A stretch of DNA of 64,000 nt from sequence record NC_019505.1; one strand, 5' to 3'. A program made the translations under genes and the position numbers. How positions within the stretch are numbered: position 1 is the stretch's first letter; every line of letters begins with the position of its first letter. The notes below the pieces were generated by a model. That model was not told the origin of the DNA and searched no databases. It was given only the letters and a program-made list of their open reading frames with translations. Positions 39,534 to 40,031 of this stretch are shown here, one piece after another. This stretch comes from Escherichia phage wV7.

Positions 39534-39563
39534 ATAATATCACTTCTCCATCATCGTGTAAAC
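39534..39563 (-). promoter_or_regulatory. T4-type early promoter of ipI-like gene
   Basis: GTTTAC -35 and TGaTATTAT extended -10; same upstream element. Confidence 0.6.
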
Positions 39564-39575
39564 AACTTTGTGAAA

Positions 39576-40031
39576 TTATTTTAAATCGTCTGCCCAATCA
39601 AGCTTAAGAGGTTCTTTGTATTCACGATCTAATACGACCGGAATTTGTACATCACCGCTAAATGATAAGGGCCCAACATTATAAGACAATGTTATATGCG
39701 GTGTGTAATCGTCAAAATCATGTGTAGCACCTAGCGCCCGCGCATACATGTGTCGACAGCGCAGATATTCAGAATCTAGTACAAGTACAAGAGTAGATCC
39801 ATCTTGTGTTTTCCATACTTCTAAATGTCCAGAAGAAGCTACTTCAAAACTTCCGCTCGATGGAACATACGGAACATTTACTCTTGAATAACATATAGTC
39901 GAATGAATTTTTTCTCTAGGAACTGGATTAGGAACACGTAAAGAGCGCTGGAGTTCTTCCAGCGCATCAAGTGTTAATTCTGAAAACTTAGCTGCTACAT
40001 AAAGACCCGTTGAAAAGTCTTTAAATTCCAT
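39576..40031 (-). CDS. 57B: 2H phosphoesterase gp57B (Acb1-type anti-CBASS cyclic-nucleotide phosphodiesterase)
   Basis: 151 aa; two H-x-T/S motifs (HSTICYS and HITLSY); position and size match T4 57B. Confidence 0.8.

Follow-up and report, generated by a model that had tools for sequence, protein, structure and literature searches.

The region between gene 57B and a gene for an internal head protein (IP) was examined in a stretch of 64,000 nt from Escherichia phage wV7 (NC_019505.1), the whole of which is referred to here as the window. The window has a G+C content of approximately 35%, its gene strand changes from minus to plus at about 42 kb, and alignment to T4 revealed that it is collinear with T4 33.7-99 kb. 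Over 38500-41000 its identity with E. coli O157 typing phage 7 (KP869105) was 100%, and at least 80% of that segment was covered in 404 phage records, mostly with Escherichia or Shigella in their names. The window is that of a T4-like coliphage. On the minus strand, 57B is followed by the promoter site at 39534-39580, by an open reading frame (ORF) of 85 amino acids that matched phrog_3499, 'internal head protein', with an E value of 3.7e-50 in PHROGs, and by a second promoter that drives the trna.4/trna.3/trna.2 genes and the tRNA cluster. Orthologues of 57B are labelled as the anti-CBASS protein Acb1 in some public records and as an 'RNA ligase' family in PHROGs. In KP869105 these genes are entered as hypothetical and the stretch examined has no promoter annotations, and a search of 30000-43000 against Rfam returned only tRNAs, with no RNA family found at the promoter. 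The coordinates of the features are collected in Table 1.

The minus strand from 39563 to 39534 reads GTTTAC-acgatgatggagaag-TGA-TATTAT, with ...gatttaaaataatttcacaaagtt directly upstream. Promoters are named here by the position of the G of GTTTAC, and +1 was set at that position minus 36, a rule that reproduces the T4 record label 'Pe133295' for the T4 promoter with GTTTAC at 133331. This places GTTTAC of the 39563 promoter at -36 to -31, TGA at -15 to -13 as an extended -10, and TATTAT at -12 to -7; when TTTACA is taken as the sigma70 -35 hexamer the spacer to TATTAT is 17 bp. Under the T4 numbering convention transcription is predicted to start at about 39527, and positions 39529 and 39526 are A residues. 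The site has the -35/-10 geometry and the TGn of a T4-type early promoter together with an A/T-rich, UP-like region that is A-rich at -40 to -44, and it precedes an early gene that runs in the same direction, where T4 has an orthologous early promoter. In T4 this promoter, with GTTTAC at 73939, serves ipI and is preceded by the identical tract. In the record of phage fPS-90 a 'predicted early promoter' is annotated at orthologous sites, including the counterpart of the 39563 promoter.

Two other assignments of the site were considered and rejected. A MotA-dependent middle promoter carries a MotA box with the consensus (a/t)(a/t)(a/t)TGCTTtA centred at -30, in place of the -35 element (PMC1524935); the stretch from -36 to -25 at 39563 is GTTTACACGATG, without TGCTT. 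A site for CRP, which would be a TGTGA-N6-TCACA dyad, is represented by one half-site only, the plus strand reading TGTGA-AATTAT-TTTAA with TTTAA at the place of TCACA.

When the T4 genome (AF158101) was scanned with the same pattern as the window, 40 matches were obtained, all on the minus strand, 29 of them with an exact GTTTAC and TGn. The position table of these 29 promoters gave, upstream, TTT (-59 to -57), AAAAAWW (-55 to -49), TTT (-48 to -46), C A C/a (-45 to -43), AAA (-42 to -40), R, T/C and T, and in the core GTTTAC, A at -30, G at -16, TG, G/A and TA(C/T)(T/A)AT. Cytosine was found at -45 in 17/29, at -43 in 12/29 and at -10, the third base of the hexamer, in 13/29. The promoters of the window have T4 orthologues, and that at 34884-34913 lies in a segment without similarity to T4. 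A first-pass annotation of the window, made from its letters alone, had described the motif and proposed a comparison with the T4 consensus. Because the T4 table yields the same upstream tract and TAYWAT -10, that annotation had in effect rediscovered the T4 early-promoter consensus. It missed that the motif is the published one (Liebig & Ruger 1989; Wilkens & Ruger 1994; Miller et al. 2003, cited in PMC2988021 and PMC1524935) and that the identity of the tracts also reflects a repeat around a mobile IP cassette. T4 early promoters have been described with GTTTAC at -36 to -31 and an A-rich stretch at -40 to -44 'resembling the UP element' (Nolan et al., PMC1524935), and have been called 'uber UP/-35/TGn/-10' promoters (PMC2988021). 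A literature search found no T4 start-site data specific to the ipI-locus promoters; the supplement of the DksA paper (PMC6024815) contains expression counts only.

The promoter class and its upstream tract

The pattern GTTTAC-N18-TAYTAT was matched 8 times in the window, on each occasion on the minus strand and within the minus-strand gene block. Since shuffled sequences gave an expectation of 0.24 and none of 100 shuffles reached 8, the class lies far above chance. The first-pass annotation had counted ten promoters with GTTTAC and TGn-TA(C/T)TAT. The class is real and confined to the minus strand, but its size depends on the definition: the strict form fitted 7 sites, the eighth match (35459) having AGA in place of TGn, and GTTTAC with TGn and TAnnnT gave 12. 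Approximately 14 promoters were accepted as credible, each followed by a Shine-Dalgarno sequence and ATG, and 13/14 have the extended -10 TGn. Their -10 hexamers are TACTAT (5), TATAAT (4), TATTAT (3), TATAGT (1) and TAGTAT (1), so that TACTAT, earlier called dominant, is a plurality only. An identical upstream tract had also been claimed for several promoters; exact copies do exist, but AACAACTTTGTGAAA occurs exactly three times (7428, 39226 and 39561), the copy at 7428 carrying one additional A (GAAAATTATTTTA), and a close variant, TTTTTCACAAAAC, is present in two more promoters (19936 and 35796). Upstream of the 19936 promoter lies a terminator-like hairpin with a T-run.

The upstream tracts were compared with the 17-bp E. 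coli UP consensus AAAWWTWTTTTNNNAAA, derived by systematic evolution of ligands by exponential enrichment (SELEX) and quoted in PMC2412878. The 14 specified positions were scored, with the 3' end of the consensus allowed at -37 to -43. Five of the 14 window promoters matched at 12-14 positions: 35796 at all 14, 7430 and 19936 at 13, and 39228 and 39563 at 12. Random positions on the same strand of the same genome gave a mean of 7.3 and reached 12 or more in 0.3% of cases; among the T4 promoters, 8/29 scored at least 12. The match at 39563 ends at -40 (or -39), and the distal part of the tract overlaps the last codons and stop codon of 57B (..tta aaa taa). The first-pass annotation had suggested that the tract could be an UP element or a binding site for a phage-modified RNA polymerase; the match to the SELEX consensus in five promoters, the T4-wide consensus and the literature support it as a predicted UP element. 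Contacts between the alpha C-terminal domain and the UP element on a T4 early promoter are sufficient for resistance to AsiA (PMC2613000), stimulation dependent on this domain and a minor-groove footprint at -40 to -60 are reported for a T4 early promoter (Orsini et al. 2004, cited in PMC2613000), and ADP-ribosylation of alpha Arg265 by Alt stimulates some T4 early promoters approximately 2-fold (PMC2988021).

Table 1. Positions of the features of the 57B-IP locus, of the further early promoters and of related elements in the window.
Feature	Position	Strand	Remarks
Gene 57B	39576..40031	-	distal UP-element half made up of its last three codons and stop codon
IP gene, 85 amino acids, MKTYKEF... 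...RLEDLK	39241..39498	-	cassette between two 32-nt repeats
UP-element-like tract TAAAATAATTTCACAAA (-56 to -40)	39567..39583	-	12/14 match to AAAWWTWTTTTNNNAAA
Core T4-type early promoter	39534..39563	-	GTTTAC 39563-39558, TGA 39542-39540, TATTAT 39539-39534
Inverted repeat bracketing the -10	39526..39553	-	TGATGGAGA (39553-39545), 10-nt loop, TCTCCATCA (39534-39526)
Direct repeat, copy 1	39556..39587	-	spans 57B 3' end, UP element and -35
Direct repeat, copy 2	39221..39252	-	spans IP gene 3' end (..gat tta aaa taa, DLK-stop), UP element and next -35
Second T4-type early promoter, GTTTAC-N15-TGA-TACTAT	39199..39228	-	T4 orthologue GTTTAC at 73572
Early promoter, near-consensus UP AAAATAATTTTCACAAA (13/14)	7401..7450	-	T4 orthologue GTTTAC at 41706, upstream of 55.6
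Early promoter GTTTAC..TGG-TATAAT, weak UP (7/14)	15496..15525	-	motif scan
Early promoter GTTTAC..TGG-TACTAT	18468..18497	-	spacer GTTCCTC complementary to downstream Shine-Dalgarno GAGGAAC
Early promoter TGG-TACTAT, UP AAAAATTTTTCACAAAA (13/14)	19907..19955	-	T4 orthologue GTTTAC at 55384
Early promoter GTTTAC..TGG-TATAGT	23109..23138	-	motif scan
Early promoter GTTTAC..TGG-TACTAT	23909..23938	-	directly after terminator-like hairpin (agtctccttcgggagactttttt)
Early promoter GTTTAC..TGG-TATAAT	28298..28327	-	upstream of regB orthologue
Early promoter GTTTAC..TGA-TAGTAT	31393..31422	-	T4 counterpart drives ipIII
Early promoter GTTTAC..TGA-TATAAT	34884..34913	-	within segment not common to T4
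Early promoter GTTTAC..AGA-TATTAT, without TGn	35430..35459	-	drives 177-aa ORF at T4 e.7 position
Early promoter TGG-TACTAT, perfect UP AAAAATTTTTTCACAAA (14/14)	35767..35816	-	T4 orthologue GTTTAC at 70696, upstream of e.8
Probable early promoter, GTTTAA -35, TGT-TATAAT	41024..41053	-	upstream of gene 1 (dNMP kinase)
Promoters with stems	18468-18497, 28298-28327, 35430-35459, 39526-39553		in T4, GTTTAC at 20612, 57990, 65799, 133331
Loci with overlap of 57B stop and IP-type ATG			L008, L013, L016, L017, L020, L023-L034, L039, L040, L042
T4 homing-endonuclease gaps	4117-4140, 8940-8918, 10216-10217, 21002-21963

Direct repeats, stem-loops and other differences from T4

The tract and -35 of the 39563 promoter are part of a perfect 32-mer, GATTTAAAATAATTTCACAAAGTTGTTTACAC, that is present in two exact copies in the window, where none was expected. 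Both 57B (..DDLK-stop) and the IP gene (..EDLK-stop) end within a copy of it, with their last three codons and stop codon, and the 39563 and 39228 promoters that it serves differ in their -35/-10 spacer and in their leader. The exact identity of the two tracts at this locus is thus partly due to a 32-nt direct repeat flanking the IP cassette. When compared with T4 ipI, the body of the IP gene (39247-39474) showed no homology, with breakpoints at 39246 and 39475; homology to T4 resumes at the first codons (MKT..., an N-terminus common to the IP genes of the locus) and at the stop codon.

The IP locus, which is present in roughly 700 Tequatrovirus records, was then compared in 36 IMG/VR loci retrieved through 57B. 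The interval from 57B to trna.4 held 0, 1, 2 or 3 IP genes, each beginning with MKT(Y/F)(K/Q)EF and each with its own T4-type promoter. Locus L007 contains ip85 followed by ip77, L038 contains ip77 only and the window ip85 only, and in a pairwise comparison the homology between L007 and L038 switches exactly at the 32-mer, at GATTTAAAATAATTTCACAAAGTTGTTTAC. The 39228 promoter is a chimera, its upstream half matching promoter 2 of L007 and its leader promoter 3; the crossover falls within GTGATACTATTACCCTATCAA, a stretch from the -10 to +11. Over the window as a whole, breakpoints of homology to T4 fell in promoter cassettes at 5/34 edges compared to 1.2 expected (binomial P = 0.0065), a result that is supportive only, the edges not being fully independent; they include the ipIII/ipII loss (31422) and the e.7 replacement. 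In distant T4-like relatives the 57B stop codon overlaps an IP-type ATG (ttaaaATGAaaac, at about position 1950) with no promoter between them, so the promoter cassette after 57B is confined to some lineages. The T4-type sequence TTAAAATAA encodes L-K-stop and at the same time supplies the distal half of the UP element.

The inverted repeat that brackets the -10 of the 39563 promoter gives a stem of 9 bp within a predicted fold that has a minimum free energy of -12.4 kcal/mol (z = -1.75), a single hairpin that is not significant by itself. Inverted repeats that link the 3' portion of the spacer to the bases immediately past the -10 were found in many promoters, with arms that differ from one to the next (GATGAGGTA/TACCTCATC, ATAGGGT/ACCCTAT, TAGGACT/AGTCCTA, GTGTAGGGATA/TATCCCTACAC); the 35459 promoter has one of 10 bp (ATAGGCTCAT/ATGAGCCTAT). 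When the pairing of each spacer with its own downstream sequence was compared with cross-pairings, the observed stem lengths were reached in 0/2000 permutations for T4, in 1/2000 for the window and in 0/5000 for 39 distinct promoters of the 36 IP loci, a strong effect at the level of the class. The stem at 39526-39553 is of the type described for promoter-early stem-loop (PeSL) elements, and its formation would be limited to read-through RNA or extruded DNA. In a second class of stems the spacer pairs with the Shine-Dalgarno sequence, as at 18497, at 28327 (TCCTCTT with AAGAGGA) and in loci L008 and L013 (ATCTCCATTTG/CAAATGGAGAT, at about 2163-2225). Because only read-through transcripts hold both arms, stems could attenuate or translationally mask the read-through RNA; in the second class the ribosome-binding site would be masked in the read-through transcript and free in the promoter-proximal one. 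Such masking of a read-through ribosome-binding site would parallel that of the T4 genes e and soc. The subclass with an anti-Shine-Dalgarno sequence in the spacer is not discussed in the available portions of the PeSL papers.

Several further differences from T4 were observed in the window. The genes ipII and ipIII are absent, the leader of the 31422 promoter joining denV-homologous sequence directly (30468-31378), and 30469-31077 has no T4 counterpart. In place of T4 gene e.7 the window has, at 34859-35407, an unrelated ORF of 177 amino acids (phrog_6869, unknown function); the 34913 promoter is part of the replacement, one edge of which falls in a promoter leader and the other at the start codon that follows the next promoter. 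Two 36-nt copies of a strong terminator-like hairpin, AGCCCC..GGGGCT followed by TTTTGG, lie at 35925-35960 and 36484-36519 on the minus strand and are 92% identical. Between them lies a segment of 525 bp that T4 lacks and that contains an ORF of 157 amino acids at 35965-36438 (phrog_2280, unknown function); in T4 the hairpin region occurs once, at 70825-70859. Here again an insertion has a duplicated regulatory element on its two sides. The tRNA cluster at 37198-38215 gave 10 Rfam matches; the matching record annotates 11 tRNAs (Arg, His, Asn, Tyr, Met, Thr, Ser, Pro, Gly, Leu and Gln), compared to 8 in T4, and no segB homing endonuclease gene in this stretch. T4 mobB, mobC, I-TevII and probably mobD fall in T4 segments that had no match in the window, as judged from jumps between alignment blocks, suggesting that the phage has fewer homing-endonuclease mobile elements than T4; at the position of mobD there is an unrelated segment of 962 bp. 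At 45026-45193 there are six tandem units of 24 nt (GTTGAAGGTAATG...) in a region collinear with T4 gene 5, which may encode the known beta-helix repeats of the cell-puncturing needle.

Interpretation and comparison with known systems

The site at 39534-39580 is very probably an early promoter of the T4 type, with an UP element close to the consensus, in which the tract and the -35 also form a recombination junction for IP cassettes. The motif and its statistics, the UP match, the orthology to T4, the repeat and the cassette junctions in relatives were all observed directly in this analysis. The contacts of the polymerase, the start sites, the timing of expression and the mechanism of recombination follow the literature and would apply here as follows. 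Unmodified host sigma70 RNA polymerase would recognise the promoter immediately after infection, region 4 of sigma reading TTTACA (within GTTTAC), region 3 TGn and region 2 TA(Y)(W)AT. The tract AAAAWWWTTT(T)CACAAA at -56 to -40 would be bound as a near-consensus full UP element by two alpha C-terminal domains, giving the promoter enough strength to out-compete those of the host, and ADP-ribosylation of alpha Arg265 by Alt and ModA would modulate its activity through the tract region. The 32-nt repeat would be a portable junction for homologous recombination, through which cassettes of a promoter and an IP gene may be gained, lost or swapped between T-even phages.

A number of observations weigh against this interpretation of the tract. 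The nine other promoters of the window score 7-9/14, near the mean of the null, so that a strong UP match marks a subclass and not the class as a whole. The CAC that occupies the 'NNN' of the UP consensus is more conserved than an UP element requires, which could reflect common descent of the cassettes rather than selection. Since the distal half of the tract codes for L-K-stop, part of its conservation at 57B is possibly driven by the protein. The E. coli UP element is placed at -57 to -41, and the match here lies approximately 1 bp nearer to the -35.

Common descent could in principle explain more than the CAC: the tracts would then be identical only through paralogous cassettes spread or homogenised by recombination, with the CAC and the 32-mer hitch-hiking and contributing no more than any A/T-rich DNA would. 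The near-consensus tract co-occurs with a common leader (TACTAT-ACAACTATCAACTAC...), suggesting copied cassette families, the repeat reaches into coding sequence on both sides as expected of a duplication junction, and the chimeric promoters have crossovers inside them. However, the spacer varies between copies while the tract and the hexamers stay fixed, which is the pattern of functional constraint; the tract fits the independently derived SELEX consensus at up to 14/14 positions; and variants at orthologous sites (TTTCAAAAAGTT, TTTAAAAAGTT, TTTCATAAAGTT) keep the A/T pattern and change mainly at the Cs. As a sole cause hitch-hiking is unlikely, but it is partly true, and complements the promoter and UP-element interpretation rather than excluding it. 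A further reading makes the tract a specific site for alpha ADP-ribosylated by Alt or ModA, or for another phage or host factor, by which the stimulated early promoters would be selected. It would account for a CAC conserved at -45 to -43 where the UP consensus leaves the positions free, and the basis on which Alt stimulates only some T4 early promoters is unknown according to reviews (PMC2988021). When P8.1 was mutated, no individual position proved responsible for the Alt effect (PMC2988021), the CAC is explicable by common descent with CAA, CAT and AAA accepted at orthologous sites, and the CRP dyad is incomplete, making a specific site of this kind very improbable.

That the sites merely resemble promoters by chance in A/T-rich DNA could be argued from a generic sigma70 scan of 34000-42000, which found 29 sites compared to 25.2 expected and no enrichment over shuffles. 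Such a scan does not discriminate in A/T-rich DNA, where only the T4-specific pattern is informative, and all matches to that pattern lie on the coding strand of the early region. The enrichment of the motif, the twofold occurrence of the 32-mer and the conservation of the sites at orthologous T4 positions, annotated as early promoters in fPS-90, effectively refute the chance reading, the probability of which is negligible. A stronger version of the recombination junction would make the promoter repeats (the UP/-35 and the -10/+1 to +11) dedicated, integron-like crossover sites recognised by a specific phage or host recombination function, and not just stretches of homology of use to general recombination. 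This is improbable; were it true, an integron-like system would move cassettes of anti-restriction IP genes, each with its promoter, between T-even phages.

The T4-type early promoter at 39563 is a real and ordinary feature whose main aspects were already known, the early-promoter consensus, the UP-like region, the link to Alt and ModA and the shuffling of promoter-flanked IP genes all being in the literature. Its practical value lies in annotation, approximately 14 early promoters and a defined IP cassette being assignable to the window. One short sequence is at once the coding 3' end of a gene, a predicted polymerase-binding element and a recombination junction.

With the T4 early promoters the site shares GTTTAC, TGn, TA(Y)(W)AT, the UP-like region and a place 5' of early genes on the early strand, and it and the 39228 promoter are one-to-one orthologues of the T4 promoters at 73939 and 73572. 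Nothing of substance separates it from the promoter of the T4 ipI locus: TATTAT stands in place of TACTAT, and both the spacer and the downstream IP gene differ. The A-tract/T-tract/N3/A-tract pattern directly upstream of the -35 is that of the E. coli UP element of the rrnB P1 type, although the phage tract has CAC at the three free positions in nearly all cases, and cytosine is glucosyl-hydroxymethylated in T4-type phages.

The closest parallel for the locus as a whole is provided by the PeSL cassettes, as set out by Arbiol et al. 2010 (PMC2839356) and Comeau et al. 2014 (PMC4122927). These combine a strong early promoter and its A/T-rich upstream region with a stem-loop overlapping the -10, a Shine-Dalgarno sequence and a start codon. 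The two papers describe PeSL-like elements at T-even IP loci, with a PST/T4 promoter consensus of TTTACW-N17-TAYWAT, and cite Repoila et al. 1994 for the polymorphism of the IP locus. Arbiol et al. regard the T-even elements as analogues, not homologues, of the PeSLs of RB49 and phi1, from which they differ in using the T4 -35 (TTTACW) and not TTGACA, and in having weaker, A/T-richer stems. Terminator activity, and the formation of mini-circles by recombination between adjacent elements, were shown for the RB49/phi1 PeSLs (PMC2839356). Like the PeSLs, which recur among the small variable genes of hyperplastic regions and contain the indel and replacement junctions of close relatives, the locus in the window has a promoter with an overlapping stem-loop and repeats between small variable ORFs with junctions inside them. 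On these sequence comparisons, the variation of the IP locus is PeSL-like modular shuffling as described by Krisch and colleagues.

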